A stretch of 57,468 nucleotides of DNA. Source: a virus. Its lineage: Duplodnaviria > Caudoviricetes. The translations under genes were made by a program, and so were the position numbers. Location of the stretch: positions 1 to 57,468 of IMG/VR virus record IMGVR_UViG_3300023276_000855; one strand, given 5' to 3'. A model generated the notes under the pieces. The model ran no database searches and was not told the DNA's origin. It was given only the letters and a program-made list of their open reading frames with translations. Shown piece by piece: positions 27,775 through 37,539 of the stretch. Position 1 is the stretch's first letter, and every line of letters starts with the position of its first letter.

Positions 27775-28031
27775 GATTTATTTGAGATGTGTTTTTGTAC
27801 TAACCAATTTCTCTCACTCCAGAATGATGCAAGAGATCCAACGTCATGTGTTGACACAGGAAACCATTGTTTATCACCTGTAGCTTTCATTCGGTCAGAT
27901 TTTTTAAGTTTGTAGTTTGTATCAGTAACTTCTTCAAAGTTTTCGCTATTTTGTGCTTCCAGTATTGTCATTTGATTTTTTAATTCCTTCTCGGCTAATA
28001 TATGTAGGTTCTGAAGTGAGTTTTGGTCCAT
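27771..28031 (-). CDS. hypothetical protein
   Basis: ORF in operon context. Confidence 0.45.
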   Translation of the reverse strand: MDQNSLQNLHILAEKELKNQMTILEAQNSENFEEVTDTNYKLKKSDRMKATGDKQWFPVSTHDVGSLASFWSERNWLVQKHISNKS

Positions 28032-28218
28032 AATGTTCTAATCCAGTGGTTTCCATAAACCTTTCTGGTTCTCCATCTCTGAATGTTAGATGCACTTGCC
28101 ATTGATCTTCTTCAGTAATATACTTTGCATCTTCAGTTGCGACCCATGCTTCTTCCATTGTATCTCTACAATAGAGCTTATCTCCCTTTTTTATATCTTT
28201 TATCGCTTTACTACTCAT
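27946..28218 (-). CDS. hypothetical protein
   Basis: ORF in operon context. Confidence 0.55.
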   Translation of the reverse strand: MSSKAIKDIKKGDKLYCRDTMEEAWVATEDAKYITEEDQWQVHLTFRDGEPERFMETTGLEHYGPKLTSEPTYISREGIKKSNDNTGSTK

Positions 28219-28538
28219 ATTAATTGTTTGTTAAGTTCTGATTCTGTCAGAATTGGTGGAATGTTTGGAGGTCTTAAATGTTCCCACCCATGTAGCCAAA
28301 TTGTTGCTCTATCATACGCCTCTCCTTCATCCATTGCTGCCATGTTGAATACGTTAATGATCCTCCATGCTTCCATGATGGCTTCTTTATATTCGCATTC
28401 GTCAGTTTGGTCAAGGAGAATCTGATTTGATCTCATTCTTTTTGAGCCACATTCAAATATATCAGTATAATCATCCCCTCCATTGGAGATGGTTTCGTAT
28501 CGATCACTATTACAGTTTGGACAATTTTCGTAATTCAT
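28215..28538 (-). CDS. hypothetical zinc-binding protein
   Basis: CPNC...FECGS. Confidence 0.6.
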   Translation of the reverse strand: MNYENCPNCNSDRYETISNGGDDYTDIFECGSKRMRSNQILLDQTDECEYKEAIMEAWRIINVFNMAAMDEGEAYDRATIWLHGWEHLRPPNIPPILTESELNKQLI

Positions 28539-28833
28539 CTAATTTATTCTTTGATAAAACATATCTATCAAACATGTTTTGTATTTTAACTTTTCTATCT
28601 AGGATATATACCTCAGTCAATCTATCCCACCCATATGCTGCTTTAGCCTCACAATCCATACAAAGGAATCTTCTCTTATATCCATTGAATACGTTGTCGC
28701 ATTTATGACATACATTCATATACCAACCATTCTCATGTTCCAAATCCTCAACTGCATCTCTTATAGATGGAGGACTGAACAATAATTTGGTTTTGGCAAT
28801 AATGTCAGTGTCTAAGTCGTCTATATTTTTCAT
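28510..28833 (-). CDS. hypothetical zinc-binding protein
   Basis: HENG.Y..CxxC..F.G.KRR..CxxC. Confidence 0.65.
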   Translation of the reverse strand: MKNIDDLDTDIIAKTKLLFSPPSIRDAVEDLEHENGWYMNVCHKCDNVFNGYKRRFLCMDCEAKAAYGWDRLTEVYILDRKVKIQNMFDRYVLSKNKLDELRKLSKL

Positions 28834-28844
28834 ATTTAAAGTGG

Positions 28845-29075
28845 TTATCTTCTGGATTGAAGTGCTTCAGCTTCCTTTTTATACTTTTGTAATATCTCGC
28901 AGAATGTGTCAATATCAGCATAATTGAGATCTATCTCAATTTGATCATCATAACTCTCCACACACAATCCAACAGTGTAAATGCGTGGACAATCCTTATC
29001 ATCTAGGGTTTTACTGTTTACTTGCACTCTAATCTCTGACTGGTCGTTGTCTCGAAAGCTTGTACTTGTCTTCAT
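28845..29075 (-). CDS. hypothetical protein
   Basis: Preceded by TTGACA-N16-TAGTCT-N6-ATG. Confidence 0.65.
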   Translation of the reverse strand: MKTSTSFRDNDQSEIRVQVNSKTLDDKDCPRIYTVGLCVESYDDQIEIDLNYADIDTFCEILQKYKKEAEALQSRR

Positions 29076-29130
29076 GCCAAAAGACTACCCTTTCTGCTCA
29101 GATTGTCAACCTAAAACGTTAAATAATATC

Positions 29131-29523
29131 ATGAGAGTAGTAGAAAGCGATGGTGCAACCTTACCAAAACCTGTTAGAAGAACAATTGAATGGCTTTATC
29201 CAACATGGGTCATCGAGGCTATTGATGATTCTGGTATTACTCATGATTGGGACACACAAAAAGATAAGAATGTGTGGGTTGCTAGACAGAGATTTAACAT
29301 CAATCTTTACCGTTATGGCATTTGTAAACGCCCCGATCTCGCCATTCTGAGACGTGTGATCGTTGGAGGACTCTTTGTGTATGACATCACACCAAACTTC
29401 ATTAAAAAGCTCCTGAAGGGTTCAGCAGAAGGTAAGAGAACCCTTCAAGAAGTACCGACTCATAGAAGAAGATTGAAATCTATGAATCGTATGGATGGTA
29501 TTTCTAAAAGACGAAATAGTTAG
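29131..29523 (+). CDS. hypothetical late protein
   Basis: ATG 29131 preceded by TAAATA-N5. Confidence 0.6.
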   Translation: MRVVESDGATLPKPVRRTIEWLYPTWVIEAIDDSGITHDWDTQKDKNVWVARQRFNINLYRYGICKRPDLAILRRVIVGGLFVYDITPNFIKKLLKGSAEGKRTLQEVPTHRRRLKSMNRMDGISKRRNS

Positions 29524-29966
29524 CGTCTCATTGGAGTTAAGGTTTCCATTGCTTTTGGAATAAAATCTCCCTGTATAGTCAAAGCCAAAAAGATCTTGTC
29601 GCAGATTTGTTTAGCTATTTTATTAAAGATGTGTTCTCTCAGAGACTCAATACTTTTAACATTAACATTACGTAATTCGAAGTCTTCTGAATATGTGAAC
29701 GATTTTCCATTGATAATATAATATGCACTCACTCTCAGAAATACTGCAAAGTTATCAGCAGAAGATAATTTTGTGACTACCCATTCCGCAGAAGTATTAA
29801 ATTCAGGAATGTGTTGAATATGTCTATCAATAATTGAATTGGTTGCTTTATTTTGCATCTCCCCCAATAACTTCAAACTTTCGTCCGTTGGTGCTTTCTG
29901 CTCTATGATAGTCTTATTACCTTCATGATAATGTACGTCTGTATTGTTATTTGTTGTATTCCACAT
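29520..29966 (-). CDS. hypothetical protein
   Basis: 148-aa ORF. Confidence 0.65.
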   Translation of the reverse strand: MWNTTNNNTDVHYHEGNKTIIEQKAPTDESLKLLGEMQNKATNSIIDRHIQHIPEFNTSAEWVVTKLSSADNFAVFLRVSAYYIINGKSFTYSEDFELRNVNVKSIESLREHIFNKIAKQICDKIFLALTIQGDFIPKAMETLTPMRR

Positions 29967-29974
29967 AATTAAAA

Positions 29975-30200
29975 ATTTGCTGGGGTTTTGGTTCTCGGTT
30001 CTATAACCTCACTTACCCCGAAGGGTCTGGTAATTTAATCCAGCATGAGAGCATCACCCCCCAGCTCGGAGCGACTTGCTTTTTGATACAGGAATATCCA
30101 CAATAAAGTGCCTGTAATTTTACTCAAGAGCTAGTTTCGTATATGCCTTATGGGTGTTGTGCCTCACACTGCTATTACTCTGATCCTCAACCTTGATTGG
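29975..30200 (-). ncRNA. candidate structured non-coding RNA or 5' leader
   Basis: Own TTGACA-N16-TATGAT promoter (30205-30232); GC-richer; C(UUCG)G hairpin, several stems and a long-range GCTGGGG/CCCCAGC pair. Confidence 0.5.
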
Positions 30201-30232
30201 GTATATCATACCTAGCTTATAGGGATTGTCAA

Positions 30233-30574
30233 CTAAAAAGGGAGTTGATCGAGGTTATTTATTTCCCAGTCGTTAATCCCTCGACCATTGAAGCTTAGAT
30301 TTGGTTGTATATAGATTGGAAATCTTTGTTCAGTTTTTCCGTCAACTATCTTATATTTTTGTTTAAGATAATGTCCCAACTTTCTATGAGAATAAGATTC
30401 TCCACACCCATAACAATATGCTCTCCCTTCACTAACTCTTAATGAGGGTGTTCTTTCGATATGATTACAACATAAAATGTAAATGTCATTTGCTACATGA
30501 TATCCTATAGAATGTGGCGTATTATAGAATCCTGATCTAGTCTTAGATATAGTATACTTTTTAAGAAATTTCAT
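30233..30574 (-). CDS. hypothetical protein
   Basis: ATG 30574 after TTGACA-N17-TAGTAT-N5; CYGC motif. Confidence 0.6.
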   Translation of the reverse strand: MKFLKKYTISKTRSGFYNTPHSIGYHVANDIYILCCNHIERTPSLRVSEGRAYCYGCGESYSHRKLGHYLKQKYKIVDGKTEQRFPIYIQPNLSFNGRGINDWEINNLDQLPF

Positions 30575-30617
30575 GACGGATACTACCACCTCGACAATCA
30601 AGTGTCAAGGATTTAAA

Positions 30618-30691
30618 TGGAAACCTCGCTCAGAATCGAACTGAGAATTATGGAGTCAAATTCCATTGTTTTTCCGTTAAACTACAAGGCT
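30618..30691 (-). tRNA. tRNA-Gln(TTG)
   Basis: Anticodon arm ATGGA-ATTTGAC-TCCAT, T-loop TTCGATT, 3' CCA. Confidence 0.9.
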
Positions 30692-30701
30692 ATTTATTAA
30701 T

Positions 30702-30792
30702 TGGCGAAAAGAAGAGGGTTCGAACCCCAAGGCATATTATACCTCCCTTTGATTAGCAATCAATGACAAACACCAAGTCTGCATTTCTTTCC
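30702..30792 (-). tRNA. tRNA-Ser(GCT)
   Basis: Loop TTGCTAA, long variable arm, GTTCGAA, GCCA end. Confidence 0.85.
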
Positions 30793-30801
30793 TTATATTG
30801 T

Positions 30802-30890
30802 TGGAAGAAGGCGGGGCTACGATTCCCAAGGCATATCATACCTCCATCTGGTTTCAAAGCAGAGACAACCACTAAGTTGCATCACCTTCC
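30802..30890 (-). tRNA. tRNA-Ser(TGA), divergent
   Basis: Loop TTTGAAA, long variable arm, atypical T-loop, TCCA end. Confidence 0.75.
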
Positions 30891-30909
30891 ATTTTATTTA
30901 TATTAGTTG

Positions 30910-30980
30910 AGATGCTGGTGAGAATCGAACTCACTTACATGGGTTTGCAATCCATTGTATAACCATTCTACCACAGCATC
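30910..30980 (-). tRNA. tRNA-Cys(GCA)
   Basis: Loop TTGCAAA, acceptor GATGCTG/CAGCATC, U73; CCA not encoded. Confidence 0.9.
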
Positions 30981-30985
30981 TTTAT

Positions 30986-31074
30986 TGGCGAAATATAGAG
31001 GTCTTGATCCCCAAGGCTATAAAACCTCCATCTAATTTCCAATTAGAGATAGTCACTTAACTATTTTATATTTC
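30986..31074 (-). tRNA. tRNA-Ser(GGA), divergent
   Basis: TCTAA-TTGGAAA-TTAGA, long variable arm, GCCA end. Confidence 0.8.
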
Positions 31075-31077
31075 TTT

Positions 31078-31151
31078 TGGCAAGTTGTCTCAGGTTCGAA
31101 CTGAGGATAAAAGTTTTGGAGACTTTTGTGTTACCGCTACACTAACAACTT
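31078..31151 (-). tRNA. tRNA-Trp(CCA)
   Basis: AAAGT-CTCCAAA-ACTTT, GTTCGAA, GCCA end. Confidence 0.9.
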
Positions 31152-31159
31152 AATTTGTA

Positions 31160-31327
31160 TTATTCTTCTGGACAGTACCATTCCATAGCCATATCATACT
31201 CATAATCAGCAAGAGCTTTCTCTGCATCAGATTTTGTATCATATGGATAGCTAGTAGTTCCTTTACTATCCCAAAAATACCATTGGTCGTTGATTAGTTC
31301 TACTGTAAATTTTTTACCTTTTTTCAT
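31160..31327 (-). CDS. small hypothetical protein inside the tRNA operon (MKKGKKFTVE..., 55 aa)
   Basis: Read manually; fills the gap between tRNA-Tyr and tRNA-Trp. Confidence 0.55.
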   Translation of the reverse strand: MKKGKKFTVELINDQWYFWDSKGTTSYPYDTKSDAEKALADYEYDMAMEWYCPEE

Positions 31328-31355
31328 TTCTCTATTTTATTTTATTATTTGTTGA

Positions 31356-31441
31356 TGGTGTGCAGGGTGGAACTCGAATCCACATGCCGATAAAGGAGTA
31401 ATTTTACAGATTACCGAGCCAACCAATTGCTCAACCCACAC
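31356..31441 (-). tRNA. tRNA-Tyr(GTA)
   Basis: GTAAT-CTGTAAA-ATTAC, variable arm, ACCA end. Confidence 0.9.
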
Positions 31442-31456
31442 ATTATTTTTTGCAAT

Positions 31457-31485
31457 AAAAAAGCCCAGTTTGTTTAGAACTGGGC
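31457..31485 (-). terminator. attenuator terminator upstream of the 7-tRNA operon
   Basis: GCCCAGTT-loop-AACTGGGC followed by TTTTTT on the minus strand. Confidence 0.85.
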
Positions 31486-31521
31486 GACGAATTATTGCTT
31501 TGTTATATACACATTAATCTA

Positions 31522-31575
31522 TCACCTCAGACTTGAGGAGCATTGCGACCATTGATATGTATAACTGTTTGTCAT
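31522..31575 (-). CDS. leader peptide MTNSYTYQWSQCSSSLR of the tRNA-operon attenuator
   Basis: ATG 6 nt after CTAAATA (TAAATA at 31582-31587); 11 of 17 codons are read by the seven downstream tRNAs. Confidence 0.8.
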   Translation of the reverse strand: MTNSYTYQWSQCSSSLR

Positions 31576-31677
31576 TGTTCTTATTTAGTGTTTATTGATT
31601 CATTATTAATCATTTAGTTATCAAATTACTTTGATATGCAGCAACCACTACGTGCAAGTAGATTAATGTCGGTTGCC

Positions 31678-31753
31678 TTACGGAGGAAGAAGTCGAATCT
31701 TCAACGATTATTGCTTATGAGACAATTTCAGCACCACTACTGACTGCTCCGTG
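31678..31753 (-). tRNA. tRNA-Met(CAT), initiator-like C1:A72 mismatch
   Basis: ATTGT-CTCATAA-GCAAT; acceptor CACGGAG/CTCCGTA; no CCA. Confidence 0.7.
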
Positions 31754-31883
31754 ATTTATATTGTTTTTGTTGGTTCTAGATGTTGTAATGTGATGGGCGA
31801 GCCACCTTTTGATACTCGTTAAAGTATCATTATCCGTTCTTTAGTTTGATTTAAGTAGTTTAATAATTGCTGTTCACATCTAA

Positions 31884-31959
31884 TGGTAGAACAGGTGGGA
31901 TTCGAACCCACGATATTTAGCTTATGATGCTAATGGCTTAACCGCTTACCTACTGTTCA
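31884..31959 (-). tRNA. tRNA-Met/Ile2(CAT)
   Basis: TTAGC-ATCATAA-GCTAA, GGGTTCGAATCCC, ACCA end; 1:72 mismatch. Confidence 0.85.
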
Positions 31960-32018
31960 GTTTCTCTTAACTTCCTGTATTTAATCAGAAAATTCTGATT
32001 TGTCAAATTAAAAGTGAT

Positions 32019-32312
32019 TTAATCTTCAATTTTCTCAATAGACTCCTCAGAAGCCCAACCAACAACCATTTCATTTTCAAAGAAAGTTTCTTCTTCAATT
32101 AGATCATCAGTAACAAAAGCTATTGTAAATTCTGCCCATCTTTTCTTTTGACGGTTACTCCAAGGAGTTCTAAGTGATTTGATATAACCTTCTCTACCCG
32201 AAAATTCAGTTTTCTTCTTGGTGATAGTTACTCTGTCTCCAGCGTCCATATCATACCATCTCGGTTTTCTTGGTTTGTATGTAGATTTCTTCTTAATTGG
32301 TGTGCTTGTCAT
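32019..32312 (-). CDS. hypothetical protein with KOW/SH3-like segment
   Basis: GDRVTI..FSGREG; preceded by TTGACT-N16-TAGGAT-N7-ATG. Confidence 0.6.
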   Translation of the reverse strand: MTSTPIKKKSTYKPRKPRWYDMDAGDRVTITKKKTEFSGREGYIKSLRTPWSNRQKKRWAEFTIAFVTDDLIEEETFFENEMVVGWASEESIEKIED

Positions 32313-32355
32313 TGGGAATATCCTAACTATTTAGCCTGATTAGTCAAGATCTTTC

Positions 32356-32736
32356 TCAGATAATGTCGATTCCGTTGCAGCGCATCCACCCAGCACGAAA
32401 CCCATCCTCGAAATTCTCTCTATTTGAGCCTTGTAAGCGGAAAGAGGTATCATCTTTATATTGGCGCAAGGCTTTTTCATAACCCTCTTCTTTATATAAT
32501 TGAACCATGTCCTTATAATTGTCTGCTACTAATCTCCCAGTCCCCTTATTATGGACGCTGAATGTAGTGTAGATTTTCTTGCTCTCAGGTAGAGTTACAT
32601 ATTCTACGATAAATGTCAAATCATCTTTATGATAATTCCATCGTTTAACATATCCTCCATCTAATTCTTCCACATCTCCCAAACAAGCATTGACCCAATC
32701 TAACTGCTCTTTCTCAATATTATCCTTCATAATCAA
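32356..32736 (-). CDS. hypothetical protein
   Basis: ORF in operon context. Confidence 0.6.
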   Translation of the reverse strand: MIMKDNIEKEQLDWVNACLGDVEELDGGYVKRWNYHKDDLTFIVEYVTLPESKKIYTTFSVHNKGTGRLVADNYKDMVQLYKEEGYEKALRQYKDDTSFRLQGSNRENFEDGFRAGWMRCNGIDII

Positions 32737-33266
32737 ATCTGTTTAAATGGTTCATCTAATAAGAGATCTACAAAGAATTTAATATCTTTATAACACTTAG
32801 ATTGTAGAGTGAAGTTGAATCTAGATGCAGCATCCGTTTTTATCCAATCCCTCAACCCTGTTCCTTTTTCTTTAGATCTAGCAGACCAATCACAAACCAT
32901 TTCTGCAATTTGCTCTCTACTCATATCCTTGATTCCGTTGACATGAAATTCTGGATGGTGATCGTTAGTCTTTCTATGTTGATCTACGGAACTAATAAGC
33001 TCTTTATCTTTAAAGTCTTTTTTGTGAAGATTATCAAACTCAATCCCAGTAAATTTGCTGGCATCGTGTATGGACGCTCTCTTTGCTAATTTCTGAGCTA
33101 ATGCTAATTCCCCAACATCACATAAACGTTTCCATAAAACTTCAGCAGTCTGTCTTACCAATGTAATATGATTCCAATGTAACTCTATTCGCTCTTTGAA
33201 TAGACGATTTTCTTCCTCGTTTAAAGGTGGTTTCTTTTCAGTATCCATAACAAATTTGGAGGTCAC
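32733..33266 (-). CDS. HD-like (DUF5662-type) protein
   Basis: HDASK, H..NDHHPE and EMVCDW motifs. Confidence 0.75.
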   Translation of the reverse strand: MTSKFVMDTEKKPPLNEEENRLFKERIELHWNHITLVRQTAEVLWKRLCDVGELALAQKLAKRASIHDASKFTGIEFDNLHKKDFKDKELISSVDQHRKTNDHHPEFHVNGIKDMSREQIAEMVCDWSARSKEKGTGLRDWIKTDAASRFNFTLQSKCYKDIKFFVDLLLDEPFKQI

Positions 33267-33309
33267 GAATGACCTCCTTATGTATCATTATTTAATTGTT
33301 TGGTGTTTA

Positions 33310-33744
33310 TTATTTAGAAAGTTCTTGTTTAACCATCGTAGATAATCTCTGTCCAGAGACAACCACACCACTCTCTTTAATATTATTCATAATTTTTCCC
33401 ATATCTTTCATGGATGTTGCATTAAAATGTCTAATCACTCCCTTAACCATCTCCCGAAGACCTAATTCATCAATTTCCTTTGGTAAGAATTCTTCTAGAA
33501 TAGATATTTCATATTTCTCTTTATCAGCTAGTTCAATACGACCAACATCACGAAATTGTTTCTCTGAGTCGTTTCCCTGCTTCACAAGCTTTCTGATGAC
33601 ATTGGGGTAGGCATCTCCTTCCACAGACGCGCCAGACTTCTCTAGGTTCGTCATAGCGGTCTTTGCTGCTCGTAGCGGAATCAATTTACTCTTATCCTTA
33701 GCCAACATTGCTTCTTTGATTGATTTTTCGATTTCCTGTTTCAT
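33310..33744 (-). CDS. GatB/YqeY domain protein
   Basis: IKEAMLAKDK..LR..K, GRIELADKE..EI.IL..FLP, MKDMGKIM. Confidence 0.9.
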   Translation of the reverse strand: MKQEIEKSIKEAMLAKDKSKLIPLRAAKTAMTNLEKSGASVEGDAYPNVIRKLVKQGNDSEKQFRDVGRIELADKEKYEISILEEFLPKEIDELGLREMVKGVIRHFNATSMKDMGKIMNNIKESGVVVSGQRLSTMVKQELSK

Positions 33745-33823
33745 TTCGACCAAGGTTTATCACTTGGGATCGGAACTGTCAATAACTTCTTGACTATTTC
33801 GGGATTTTTGTTAAATTTCCTAC

Positions 33824-34012
33824 ATGAGCGAAGAGATAACATATTGGTGGGTGGAATTCCGAGAGTGGGATAAATGGTTTCGTCACGGAATGGATTATGA
33901 GGATGAAATAAAAGCTCTTAGAGCTGCGTCATATGCAGCATCCCATAATGGCGAAGAGTGTATTAGAGTCATGAAACAAGTCGGAGATAACCCTAAAGAG
34001 GAAGTATTATAG
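33824..34012 (+). CDS. hypothetical protein
   Basis: Preceded by TTGACT-N16-TAAATT-N6-ATG. Confidence 0.6.
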   Translation: MSEEITYWWVEFREWDKWFRHGMDYEDEIKALRAASYAASHNGEECIRVMKQVGDNPKEEVL

Positions 34013-34027
34013 TTAAATACATACAGT

Positions 34028-34501
34028 ATGGACTTTAATGAATTACATGATGACATCATCCAAAACAGAACACAAAAGTTAATAAAAGAATCAATGAGAA
34101 ATGACGACACATTAAAACCTATATTAAGAGCATTGGCTACATATGGATATACGATAGTTCCAAAGAGGGATAGATTAGTTCCGATGAAAATGAAGGTCAA
34201 GAATCCTCGCAAACCTGATTATATGGAACTCGAAAATCTATTTAAAATGATGTATAATCGAGCACAAAATTTACCCGATGCACTATCATTCACTAATATG
34301 ACTAGAGATAATGATCATATTATGGAATTTGGTAAAGTAATTGATACTCTGGTGGAAACCAAAAAAACTGTTCCACGCGAATACATGAAACAGTTTATTA
34401 AATGGTCTTCTGGTATTTATAAACCAGCTATGCAAAAAGGTTTTCCTTATAATAAGTATAGAGATATTGTAGTCAATATGCGCAACTTAAATAAGAGATA
34501 A
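34028..34501 (+). CDS. hypothetical late protein
   Basis: TAAATA upstream; 157 aa. Confidence 0.6.
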   Translation: MDFNELHDDIIQNRTQKLIKESMRNDDTLKPILRALATYGYTIVPKRDRLVPMKMKVKNPRKPDYMELENLFKMMYNRAQNLPDALSFTNMTRDNDHIMEFGKVIDTLVETKKTVPREYMKQFIKWSSGIYKPAMQKGFPYNKYRDIVVNMRNLNKR

Positions 34502-34837
34502 TTAGTCAATAGTCACACTACCATCATCATTAACAGTATGGTCTTGTACTTTAGCAACTAATCCCATAATAACACCAAGTTCATTGTCGCGCTTACCTGT
34601 AAGTTCACCTGCTAGGAAAGCAACTGTGTTTGTGTTAAGTTCAAAAAGCTCCTGTGCATCTGTTCCTAGTGCATCAAGTACATCTTGGGGATTTTCATCT
34701 TCCCAAATTGCAGATAGACTAGATACAACTCCTTGAATCAGAGCGTCAGTGCTTTGCTTTGCAGAACGTTTAATTCTGTTTGCCTTCTGTTCAGCTTGTG
34801 TAAGCTCTTGTCTTGGTTGTTCGTTTAGTACGCTCAT
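34502..34837 (-). CDS. hypothetical protein (fibre-associated)
   Basis: ORF downstream of the sulfotransferase. Confidence 0.65.
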   Translation of the reverse strand: MSVLNEQPRQELTQAEQKANRIKRSAKQSTDALIQGVVSSLSAIWEDENPQDVLDALGTDAQELFELNTNTVAFLAGELTGKRDNELGVIMGLVAKVQDHTVNDDGSVTID

Positions 34838-34842
34838 AATAA

Positions 34843-35544
34843 TTATTTAGTAATTGTCGGCTTTAATTTGTGGCTACCGAATATGCCATAATGTGAATCG
34901 TCTTCTTCAACACTTTTAACAATGTTGTTAGGATCAATTTCAAAATTTGCTATTTCAAGGTGTGCAAATACCTTATTCATTGTCTGGACTGGCTTTGCTA
35001 CAAGATCGTCATACTCCACATACATAATCCTGCTGTCCTGTCCTTTGCGTTGTCGCTCATTAATTCTATTCAAGGCTAGACCAAGCGGTACATTATTCAT
35101 GAAATACTGCATTCTTGGTTCTAAGTTGATTGGAATGTTGCGTGTCTCTGGGTGTCCAATATTAGCTTGATAGATTTTCTCTAGGCTGGCTAGAATGTCA
35201 TCAACTGGTCTAACCATAGTAACCATTTTAGACTCTGGATATAGATTCCAAAGTAGTTCTCCATGCTCCAACCATCCTCTTGATTTATCTACAATAACTG
35301 GTTTATCAGTTAGTGCTTTGTAATACCCATCAATACCAGATCGCATAAACCCATCCATTGCATCTTTCATCAATGTTGGGTCTTGGCTTTTTACTTCTGC
35401 TAGTCCGAAATTAGCTAATGCTCCATAGCAATATTCTAAAGCTGGACTGGTTGCACTTGCATACACTTCGGGGTGTTGTCCTAAGAGTGCTTGCATAAGT
35501 TCGCTACCTGCTCTTGGTAGACTACTGTTGACGTGTAAGTTCAT
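34843..35544 (-). CDS. PAPS-dependent sulfotransferase
   Basis: SLPRAGS (5'-PSB loop), DKSRGW, R...ILAS, VEYDDLV..P; TATAAATA late promoter. Confidence 0.85.
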   Translation of the reverse strand: MNLHVNSSLPRAGSELMQALLGQHPEVYASATSPALEYCYGALANFGLAEVKSQDPTLMKDAMDGFMRSGIDGYYKALTDKPVIVDKSRGWLEHGELLWNLYPESKMVTMVRPVDDILASLEKIYQANIGHPETRNIPINLEPRMQYFMNNVPLGLALNRINERQRKGQDSRIMYVEYDDLVAKPVQTMNKVFAHLEIANFEIDPNNIVKSVEEDDSHYGIFGSHKLKPTITK

Positions 35545-35583
35545 GTAAGTATTTATATATCTATTTTAATGTTACAAGCGGTT

Positions 35584-37539
35584 TTACACTAGGTTGCCTA
35601 ATGATAGAGTCTTAATAGTACCTGCATCATTGTAATCCATGTATACTGCAACTCCATCAACTCGGAAGGATTTCATCCCAACTGCTAATGTTCCATCAAC
35701 TTCATAACCTGCCGCCAATGCACTTGCTGTTGGTGCTGTTGCAGTGTCTTTGACTGTCTCTGCTACCATACCATCACCATGAATACGAACTGATCCACCA
35801 CGAACAGTGGTGCTTGACCAGTAACCATGCTCTTGACAGTTATTGATAGCTACTTGGATGCTTCTTCCTCCTGCTACTGAATAATCACCACTAACTGTAG
35901 AAGCTTTACCACTAGCTGTAGAATAATTACCACTAGCTGTAGAACCACTACCACTAGCTGTAGAATAAGTACCACTAGCTGTAGAACTATAACCACTAGC
36001 TGTAGAATAATTACCAATAGCTGTAGAATAATAACCACTAGCTGTAGAATAATTACCAATAGTTAAAGAACTTTGACCACTAGATGTGGAAAAAATACCA
36101 CTAGCTGTAGCACCAGCACCACTAGCTAAAGAATAATCACCACTAGCTACGGAACCATAACCACTAGCTGTAGAATAATTACCACTAGCTGTAGAAGCTT
36201 TACCACTAGCTACAGAATAATTTCCCCAAGCTTTTGAATCTTTACCACTAGCCACTGCATGGTCACCCTTTTCAACTGTTGGGTTTGCTGGGTTGTGTGT
36301 TACTGCGCCATCACCACTAGCTATAGAATGATAACCACTAGCTGTAGAAGCTTTACCACTAGCTGTAGAATGCTCACCGATTGCATCAGAACCACTACCA
36401 CTAGCTGTAGAATAAGTACCACTAGCTGTAGAACTATAACCACTAGCTGTAGAATAATTACCAATAGTTAAAGAACTTTGACCACTAGATGTGGAAAAAA
36501 TACCACTAGCTGTAGCACCAGCACCACTAGCTAAAGAATAATCACCACTAGCTACGGAACCATAACCACTAGCTGTAGAATAATTACCACTAGCTGTAGA
36601 AGCTTTACCACTAGCTACAGAATAATTTCCCCAAGCTTTTGAATCTTTACCACTAGCCACTGCATGGTCACCCTTTTCAACTGTTGGGTTTGCTGGGTTG
36701 TGTGTTACTGCGCCATCACCACTAGCTATAGAATGATAACCACTAGCTGTAGAAGCTTTACCACTAGCTGTAGAATAAACACCACTAGCTGTTGAGGCAC
36801 TACCACTAGCTGTAGATTCATCGCCAATAGCATTAGAACCCCAACCACTAGCTACAGAATGAAAACCACTGGCTGTGGAACCATTACCACTGGCTGTAGC
36901 ATAATTCTGACTAGCTGTAGAGCCAAGACCACTAGCTATAGAAGCAGTGCCACTAGCTGTACCACCGAATACTGACACACCATTATTAGTTGCGTCCCAT
37001 ACATCACCTGTGTTAGTGCCACTTGTGTTAGCTAGTCGATTCTCATCAGCGAGTGGATAAGATCTTTTTGCGGTGTTTAAACCTATGGCAGAGTTTTGTG
37101 TGGTCTGCTCCGATTGTAGATCACCTACATCGGTTCCAAGTTGCCCAATGTCCCCTTCGATGGCTGATAAATCTTGATCGCCTGTGTTAGTACCACTTTG
37201 ATTACTTAAATTTGTTTTTTCACTATCTGTGAATGCATTAGTGTTAGCATTATTTTCATAAGCTGTTTTGATTTGTGCGTCTGTTTGATCACCAGTAGCA
37301 CCAGATTCAATGGTGTCTAGTTTGGTCTTATCCCCATCTTGAAATGCACCTTCTGAAGGCTTTACTTGTAGTGCTGAGAGGTCTTGATCGCCTGTGTTAG
37401 TACCAGATTGATTAGCTACTACTGCGGTATTTGCAGAAACCTCTGATATAATAGTACCTAAATCAATACCCTCCCTAAACTCTTGTCGCTGAGATGCGCT
37501 TAGGGATGGAAGATATTCCGTTATGAAGAATTTGGACAT
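35584..37539 (-). CDS. trimeric fibre protein with YadA/Hep-Hag-like head repeats
   Basis: Dozens of STASGxY heptads; SGTNTGD repeats; late promoter. Confidence 0.8.
   Translation of the reverse strand: MSKFFITEYLPSLSASQRQEFREGIDLGTIISEVSANTAVVANQSGTNTGDQDLSALQVKPSEGAFQDGDKTKLDTIESGATGDQTDAQIKTAYENNANTNAFTDSEKTNLSNQSGTNTGDQDLSAIEGDIGQLGTDVGDLQSEQTTQNSAIGLNTAKRSYPLADENRLANTSGTNTGDVWDATNNGVSVFGGTASGTASIASGLGSTASQNYATASGNGSTASGFHSVASGWGSNAIGDESTASGSASTASGVYSTASGKASTASGYHSIASGDGAVTHNPANPTVEKGDHAVASGKDSKAWGNYSVASGKASTASGNYSTASGYGSVASGDYSLASGAGATASGIFSTSSGQSSLTIGNYSTASGYSSTASGTYSTASGSGSDAIGEHSTASGKASTASGYHSIASGDGAVTHNPANPTVEKGDHAVASGKDSKAWGNYSVASGKASTASGNYSTASGYGSVASGDYSLASGAGATASGIFSTSSGQSSLTIGNYSTASGYYSTAIGNYSTASGYSSTASGTYSTASGSGSTASGNYSTASGKASTVSGDYSVAGGRSIQVAINNCQEHGYWSSTTVRGGSVRIHGDGMVAETVKDTATAPTASALAAGYEVDGTLAVGMKSFRVDGVAVYMDYNDAGTIKTLSLGNLV
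36031..36776. repeat. about 340-bp apparently identical direct repeat, period 405 bp, inside the fibre gene
   Basis: 36031-36371 matches 36436-36776. Confidence 0.85.

Follow-up and report, generated by a model that had tools for sequence, protein, structure and literature searches.

The locus considered here raises a simple question: why should an intrinsic terminator stand within a cluster of co-directional transfer RNA (tRNA) genes, 15 nucleotides (nt) ahead of tRNA-Tyr and with seven tRNA genes behind it? The cluster lies in a 57,468-base virus record of IMG/VR (IMGVR_UViG_3300023276_000855; completeness estimate 27 %), the whole of which was analysed and is called the window below. The window encodes a Gp23-type major capsid protein, thymidylate synthase and ribonucleotide reductase, together with a head maturation protease, an adaptor-like protein and a baseplate-hub-like protein. 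On this gene content the virus is a T4-like phage, and a distant one, since the capsid protein is no more than 32 % identical to that of any GenBank phage. A preliminary description of the sequence had proposed that the terminator, together with a 17-codon open reading frame (ORF) in front of it, forms an attenuator of the trp/his/pheST type. The architecture of that proposal stands, in that a putative promoter with a start codon, a leader with cognate codons, three alternative folds and a terminator are all present, and we consider a ribosome-mediated (leader-peptide) transcription attenuator ahead of this phage tRNA sub-cluster to be the probable answer, with a probability of roughly 0.6.

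The elements of the locus are as follows, with positions being those of the window and lengths of encoded proteins given in amino acids (aa).

31959-31884, minus strand: tRNA-Met, upstream of the leader
31754-31677, minus strand: second Met-like tRNA, called by ARAGORN only, upstream of the leader
31588-31582, minus strand: late-promoter-like motif CTAAATA, which includes TAAATA (31587-31582) and is separated from the leader ATG by a 6-nt spacer
31575-31522, minus strand: 17-codon leader ORF, MTNSYTYQWSQCSSSLR followed by UGA
31563-31506, minus strand: segment 1:2 hairpin (anti-antiterminator), from folding
31533-31476, minus strand: segment 2:3 antiterminator, from folding
31485-31457, minus strand: intrinsic terminator (3:4), stem 31485-31463 plus T6
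31441-31356, minus strand: tRNA-Tyr(GTA), default ARAGORN call, cloverleaf drawn
31327-31160, minus strand: 55-aa ORF between tRNA-Tyr and tRNA-Trp, inside the putatively regulated unit
31151-31078, minus strand: tRNA-Trp(CCA), default ARAGORN call, Rfam RF00005 60.6 bits
31071-30990, minus strand: tRNA-Ser(GGA), atypical, ARAGORN -ps80 only, no Rfam match at E<=1
30980-30909, minus strand: tRNA-Cys(GCA), default ARAGORN call, Rfam RF00005 58 bits
30891-30803, minus strand: tRNA-Ser(TGA), atypical, ARAGORN -ps80, Rfam tRNA-Sec 23.9 bits, sub-threshold
30792-30702, minus strand: tRNA-Ser(GCT), atypical, ARAGORN -ps80, Rfam tRNA-Sec 34.9 bits, sub-threshold
30691-30618, minus strand: tRNA-Gln(TTG), last gene of the unit, default ARAGORN call, Rfam RF00005 57.2 bits
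30608-30580, minus strand: predicted sigma-70-like promoter of the next ORF after tRNA-Gln

The motif, the leader ORF, the terminator and the tRNAs were each found where the preliminary description had put them, and the two tRNA-Met genes and the 55-aa ORF are additions to its list of elements. The 55-aa ORF has a weak DUF6316 match below the Pfam cut-off, and searches of Pfam with the flanking small ORFs gave sub-threshold matches only. No sigma-70-like promoter is predicted on the minus strand between 32320 and 31091; with no predicted promoter between the terminator and the tRNAs, the seven downstream genes would need read-through of the terminator. It could be argued instead that this is an ordinary terminator closing an upstream unit made up of ORF97 with the two Met tRNAs, the short ORF and the pairings around it being chance products of an AT-rich spacer. 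The element does lie downstream of the two tRNA-Met genes and of a possible promoter at 32347-32320, but a terminator of this kind would leave seven tRNA genes stranded behind it with no promoter, and we regard the explanation as very unlikely.

Codon content of the leader and the tRNA genes behind it

The leader ORF cannot extend further upstream, because an in-frame TAA lies four codons before its ATG. Eleven of the 16 codons after the ATG are cognate to the seven tRNAs encoded downstream, and each of the seven has at least one cognate codon in the leader, in agreement with the count made in the preliminary description. When 16 codons were drawn 2,000,000 times at the triplet frequencies of the window, the probability of 11 or more cognate codons was 1.3 × 10⁻⁴, that of covering all seven tRNAs 1.6 × 10⁻³, and that of both 2.3 × 10⁻⁵; the corresponding values from the codon usage of the phage's long ORFs are 7.5 × 10⁻⁶, 3.9 × 10⁻⁴ and, jointly, 2.0 × 10⁻⁶. 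A cognate fraction of at least 11/16 is reached by just three of the 624 ATG ORFs of 10-40 codons present on both strands of the window, and because the other two score 7/10 the leader is the most significant of them all. The match is also frame-specific, with 11/16 in the leader frame, whereas the two remaining frames of that strand reach 2/16 and 4/16; the reverse-complement frames over the leader contain 3/16, 2/15 and 4/15 cognate codons. Within the 235-nt spacer there are six ORFs of at least five codons, and the five that are not the leader score 0-3. The codons of the leader are, as attenuation demands, enriched and cognate to the products of the operon. Collinearity of the leader codons with the order of the tRNA genes was considered and rejected (longest common subsequence 5, permutation P = 0.30).

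Default ARAGORN settings suffice to call tRNAs Tyr, Trp, Cys and Gln, four of the seven, and for the last three there is also a call by Rfam RF00005. With -ps80, ARAGORN gave 12 calls on a 2,001-nt region, three of them doubtful (two antisense Arg and one Ser inside ORF97) and apparently spurious. The acceptor stem of this last, a Ser(tga)-like call at 31997-32081 within the 97-aa ORF at 32312-32019, is poor, and the call is probably spurious. The cloverleaves of the three downstream Ser tRNAs have class II long variable arms, correct anticodon loops and 4-bp T stems, and the two with matches to the Rfam tRNA-Sec model fall below its cut-off of 47 bits. We accept the three Ser genes as atypical tRNAs, with the caveat that they are sub-threshold. 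One variable arm is common to all three of these class II tRNAs.

Start signal and alternative folds of the leader

The preliminary description had placed a late promoter, TAAATA, 6 nt ahead of the 17-codon ORF, and the hexamer is indeed present there as part of CTAAATA. The window has 11 sites in which CTAAATA is followed after 4-7 nt by ATG, where 1.49 would be expected, and that number was reached in none of 100 shuffles. Nine of them head long ORFs, as read from the ORF lists (14443, 15760, 17103, 34850, 37551, 50280, 50661, 56380 and 57146); the remaining two are an ATG-TAA just before a long ORF and the leader itself. At three further genes the start signal is TATAAATA (54083, 35557 and 20661), with 5 nt between signal and ATG in two of them and none in the other. 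The genes with a CTAAATA or TATAAATA signal include those for the head maturation protease, the adaptor-like protein, the baseplate-hub-like protein and a YadA-repeat protein, and the distance from signal to ATG at virion genes is 5-6 nt. The late promoter of phage T4 is described (PMC2988020) as a TATA box of 8 bp that precedes the start site by about one helical turn; with that geometry, a spacer of 5-6 nt would place position +1 at or beside the A of the ATG. Among 38 start regions inspected by eye, most are A/T-rich upstream and lack a GGAGG-type Shine-Dalgarno sequence. This arrangement suggests that the late messenger RNAs (mRNAs) of this marine T4-like lineage are leaderless and begin directly at AUG. 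Because it has a putative late-gene start signal and lies among genes mostly without a Shine-Dalgarno sequence, the leader ORF probably heads a leaderless late mRNA of this type, and it has what an attenuator needs at its 5′ end, a short promoter-proximal ORF with a credible predicted translation start.

The region 31580-31445 folds with an energy of -34.3 kcal/mol, compared with -21.0 (standard deviation 3.5) for shuffled sequences (z = -3.83, 0/200 as good), and folding reproduced all three pairings, 1:2, 2:3 and 3:4, that the preliminary description had drawn. In the naked RNA, a compound 1:2 hairpin at 31563-31506 (about -15.4 kcal/mol) and the terminator form together, at -28.3 kcal/mol. 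The outer stem of this hairpin pairs 31563-31555 with 31514-31506, and the CCUCA/UGAGG pairing, which had been taken as the 1:2 hairpin, is confirmed as its inner part (31538-31525). In the antiterminator (-15.4 kcal/mol), 31530-31524 is paired to all six bases of the terminator 5′ arm (31485-31480), and the stop codon at 31524-31522 sits in the antiterminator 5′ strand, that is, within segment 2 as originally supposed. The terminator itself, which stands between the leader and the genes that would be regulated, has a stem (31485-31463) of 8 bp, five of them G-C, with a 7-nt loop followed by T6, and its hairpin has an energy of -11.5 kcal/mol.

A ribosome was modelled as a mask over the RNA, reaching from the 5′ end to a point 12 or 15 nt past the codon in the A site. 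When this was one of codons 2-11, a transcript stopping just short of the terminator 3′ arm forms the 2:3 helix at -15.0 to -16.2 kcal/mol with 6/6 arm bases paired (at codon 11 under the 15-nt mask, -12.7 kcal/mol and 5/6 arm bases); at codon 12 the helix is partial and from codon 13 or 14 onwards it is impossible. The preliminary description had asked for folding with and without ribosome-masked segments, and the outcome is that in silico the position of the ribosome decides which of the mutually exclusive folds forms. Minimum-free-energy folds of the growing transcript pass from the 1:2 hairpin at 72-90 nt through the antiterminator at 97-104 nt to the 1:2 hairpin plus terminator at 112-120 nt, the 1:2 hairpin forming before segment 3 is transcribed. 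These alternative folds and the start signal are independent of codon identity, and the antiterminator is favoured by stalls in a limited window only, from about codon 4 to codon 12; both points would suit an attenuator of a more general kind, reporting overall translation capacity or the coupling of transcription to translation, through any slowing or scarcity of ribosomes, and not particular tRNAs. The identity of the codons is, however, far from random and matches exactly the tRNAs putatively under control, and we think it unlikely that the element is indifferent to them.

The strength of the antiterminator was assessed against 1,000 dinucleotide shuffles of the 96 nt upstream, in which the competing pairing had a mean energy of -8.0 kcal/mol (standard deviation 2.95). 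Only 1.2 % of the shuffles were as stable as -15.4 kcal/mol, and 0.3 % were as stable and also had at least six arm bases paired. Among the 16 terminator-like hairpins of the window, that of the leader has the most stable upstream competitor (-15.4 kcal/mol, the next being -12.5) and is the only one whose competitor is stabler than its own hairpin (-15.4 versus -11.5 kcal/mol). For the spacer to have produced all of this in front of an ordinary terminator, the codon match (about 2 × 10⁻⁵) would have to coincide by chance both with the antiterminator (about 0.003-0.012) and with a late start signal no more than about 100 nt ahead of that terminator, and the joint probability is very small even when the 624 ORFs are allowed for. 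The other terminators of the window are mostly at gene ends and include three opposite-strand pairs (17959/17988, 47876/47905 and 57337/57368); these, too, are at gene ends, and with the two hairpins of each pair sharing a position, one on either strand, they probably terminate transcription in both directions.

A promoter followed by a structured RNA of about 120 nt and a terminator is likewise the anatomy of a small RNA gene, and trans-acting attenuator RNAs are reported from Sinorhizobium (PMC6614838). The locus could on this basis be a late gene complete in itself, whose product is a small RNA or a peptide of 17 residues, having a constitutive terminator and a codon match of no regulatory meaning, with the downstream tRNAs supplied by leak-through or by longer upstream transcripts; the one metatranscriptome contig here spans 31458-31518 only and is not interpretable. 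Such a gene would nevertheless leave unexplained the frame-specific 11/16 match with its coverage of seven tRNAs, as well as the unusually strong competitor of the terminator 5′ arm that overlaps the stop codon, and would leave the downstream tRNAs with no predicted promoter of their own. We give this explanation little credence. A T-box riboswitch was ruled out, there being no match to the T-box model, nor to any other regulatory family, when 28000-36000 was searched against Rfam with cmscan at E<=1; the output consists of tRNA-clan matches and one weak Ysr209 match elsewhere.

Relatives of the locus and evidence against an attenuator

The stretch 30200-33300 is matched in seawater and marine metagenome runs (24 rows, 20 studies), of which four are possible sources of this DNA. 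A blastn search of GenBank phages with 30400-32100 returned 15 records, in every one of which the match is to tRNA-Trp only, and neither the flanking 122-aa ORF nor the 55-aa ORF has relatives among the viral contigs. The neighbouring DUF5662 gene is found in viral contigs at 17 loci (25-50 % identity), which have other tRNA sets, a transfer-messenger RNA (tmRNA) or nothing, and those that bear tRNAs have no CTAAATA or TTAAATA followed after 4-7 nt by ATG in the 10-kb stretches examined. A phage tmRNA follows the DUF5662 gene, at the place of the tRNA cluster, in L002 (3829-4240), L003 (6039-6450), L005 (6042-6458) and L016 (5949-6359); these tmRNA-bearing relatives are distant, their DUF5662 proteins being about 47-50 % identical. 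From the metagenome contigs, 80 of 451 loci were kept in the DUF5662 alignment, and default ARAGORN found tRNAs in only six of those kept; the three closest loci (77-81 %) align over the DUF5662 gene only and have no such cluster at that site. Closer relatives of the DUF5662 protein, at 73-82 % identity, occur in ENA/Logan/Tara contigs. A pattern search with the variable arm of the Ser tRNAs gave nine loci, all by chance, and a 20-mer over the promoter and the start of the ORF was absent from the viral contigs (0 matches) and gave 10 chance matches in GTDB genomes.

In DNA reads the leader is represented by one identical contig (run X14), and it is barely covered in run X16. One X16 contig joins 31678 to 31589, so that 88 nt (31590-31677) are missing; its match to the window continues over 31589-31561, which takes in the motif and leader codons 1-5, and beyond that point its sequence is different. 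In another, 30623-30789, which carries Ser(GCT) and Gln, is replaced by 166 other letters. The leader and the tRNA set may vary together between strains. The RNA run X13, from an oligo-dT library and analysed as contigs, has coverage of 31458-31518 and of some other pieces. The greatest depth (45) is that of an oligo-dT metatranscriptome contig at 31734-31872, which spans the interval separating the two Met tRNAs together with the edges of those genes; it may represent a small RNA of high abundance or an artefact of A-rich priming.

Several observations weigh against an attenuator at this locus. The hypothesis was formed after the sequence had been seen, and its selection on reading a 57-kb window, like the counts of the bare start-signal words, would also be compatible with an ordinary terminator: TAAATA occurs 87 times against 101 expected and CTAAATA 23 times against 17.6, neither being enriched. 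The start of transcription, the leaderless mode of translation and the host are assumptions. The searches of viral contigs, metagenome contigs, GenBank phages and GTDB genomes yielded no relative with this tRNA cluster, and the element is seen in a single sequence. The three Ser tRNAs are missed by default ARAGORN and by the Rfam tRNA model and appear, as sub-threshold calls, at -ps80 only. Just upstream of tRNA-Ser(TGA), with 4 nt between, 30902-30895 is a perfect TATAAATA; it may act as a late promoter inside the unit, and the attenuator would then be bypassed, although TATAAATA is not enriched in the window (12 occurrences against 9.6 expected).

The folding, too, contains difficulties. The caveat in the preliminary description that stalls at the last Ser codons could occlude segment 2 agrees with the folding for codons 13-15 (UCC, UCA and AGU), at which a stalled ribosome masks the antiterminator 5′ strand and would promote termination, not read-through. 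These are three of the 11 cognate codons and include, at position 13, the sole codon for Ser(GGA). The original claim that all seven tRNAs are sensed is accordingly supported only in part, for stalls at about codons 4-12, which would favour the antiterminator, but not for codons 13-15, where the only Ser(GGA) codon is blocked. The inner hairpin can survive a ribosome stalled at codons 2-9, and in the full-length transcript the terminator state (-23.3 kcal/mol) remains stabler than the antiterminator (-15.4 to -16.2 kcal/mol), so that antitermination must be kinetic, with the antiterminator forming first.

Proposed operation and comparison with known systems

The general scheme of leader-peptide attenuation is set out in PMC1183508, and in the model that we favour the phage element would work as follows. 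The host RNA polymerase would start at the T4-type late motif CTAAATA, and the first or second base of the transcript would begin the AUG of the 17-codon ORF on a leaderless mRNA. In the absence of a ribosome, the hairpin at 31563-31506 would form first and sequester segment 2, the terminator would form and transcription would stop 15 nt before tRNA-Tyr; a ribosome that reaches the UGA would cover segment 2, with termination again the result. A ribosome stalled within about codons 4-12 (AGU, UAU, UAU, CAA, UGG, UCG, CAA and UGC) would instead hold or melt segment 1, and the freed segment 2 would pair with the terminator 5′ arm to give the antiterminator (-15.4 kcal/mol). The polymerase would then continue into tRNA-Tyr, the 55-aa ORF and the tRNAs for Trp, Ser, Cys, Ser, Ser and Gln. 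Since the codons at which ribosomes would stall are those read by the downstream tRNAs, the circuit would be homeostatic: scarcity of charged tRNA would give read-through, read-through more tRNA, and more tRNA termination. We infer the start of transcription, the translation of the ORF, the stalling and the regulated read-through from the layout and folding of the locus.

The purpose of phage tRNAs is debated, with codon compensation and escape from tRNA-targeting defences as the two views (PMC10264068, PMC11464382). A further proposal, which we hold to be doubtful, is that the element is a multiplexed demand sensor in which the leaderless ORF samples decoding capacity and opens the replacement tRNAs only when ribosomes stall, including after the action of a host anticodon nuclease or another tRNA-depleting defence; the cluster would on that account be an inducible counter-defence and not a constitutive compensation of codon usage. 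The link to host anticodon nucleases is one that we infer only. The regulation of phage tRNA genes is hardly known, and in the full-text literature, with subscription-only publications outside the search, no description was found of attenuation control of such genes. If the attenuator is genuine, it would be the first leader-peptide attenuator found to control tRNA genes and the first in a phage; many isoacceptors would be sensed at once, so that the phage would measure its tRNA supply and top it up on demand, and other phages could be searched by the rule that the codons of a short ORF mirror the tRNA genes behind a terminator.

The trp and his attenuators (leaders trpL and hisL) share with the phage element a short promoter-proximal ORF containing regulatory codons, hairpins of the 1:2, 2:3 and 3:4 types, an intrinsic terminator ahead of the genes under control and a stop codon at which a ribosome finishing translation blocks segment 2. 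They differ in controlling biosynthetic enzymes, whereas the phage element would control tRNAs from a T4-type late motif and, probably, a leaderless mRNA; moreover, the codons of the phage leader represent five amino acids, with seven isoacceptors among them, and none is repeated in a run. Mixed leaders are known from the thr operon, with Thr and Ile codons, and from ilv, with Ile, Leu and Val codons, and here as in the phage a single leader would sense several amino acids through mixed regulatory codons, although thr and ilv sense two or three amino acids of one pathway while the mixture in the phage mirrors the anticodons of the downstream tRNAs. The attenuator of pheST (leader pheM) acts on an aminoacyl-tRNA synthetase in a bacterial chromosome and uses Phe codons only; it resembles the phage element in being a leader-peptide attenuator of a component of the translation apparatus that is sensed through its own cognate charged tRNA, but it regulates a synthetase through those Phe codons, whereas the phage leader precedes tRNA genes. 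T-box riboswitches likewise read the status of tRNA by transcription attenuation and serve translation-related genes, but they bind uncharged tRNA directly and have no ORF, whereas the phage element has a leader ORF. Phage T4 has clustered tRNA genes interspersed with small ORFs, an arrangement shared by the T4-like phage described here, and we know of no leader-peptide attenuator for the T4 cluster. As judged from its sequence, then, the element would employ a known mechanism of attenuation, and what would be new are the tRNA targets, the setting of a phage late promoter and leaderless mRNA, and a codon set that mirrors seven anticodons.

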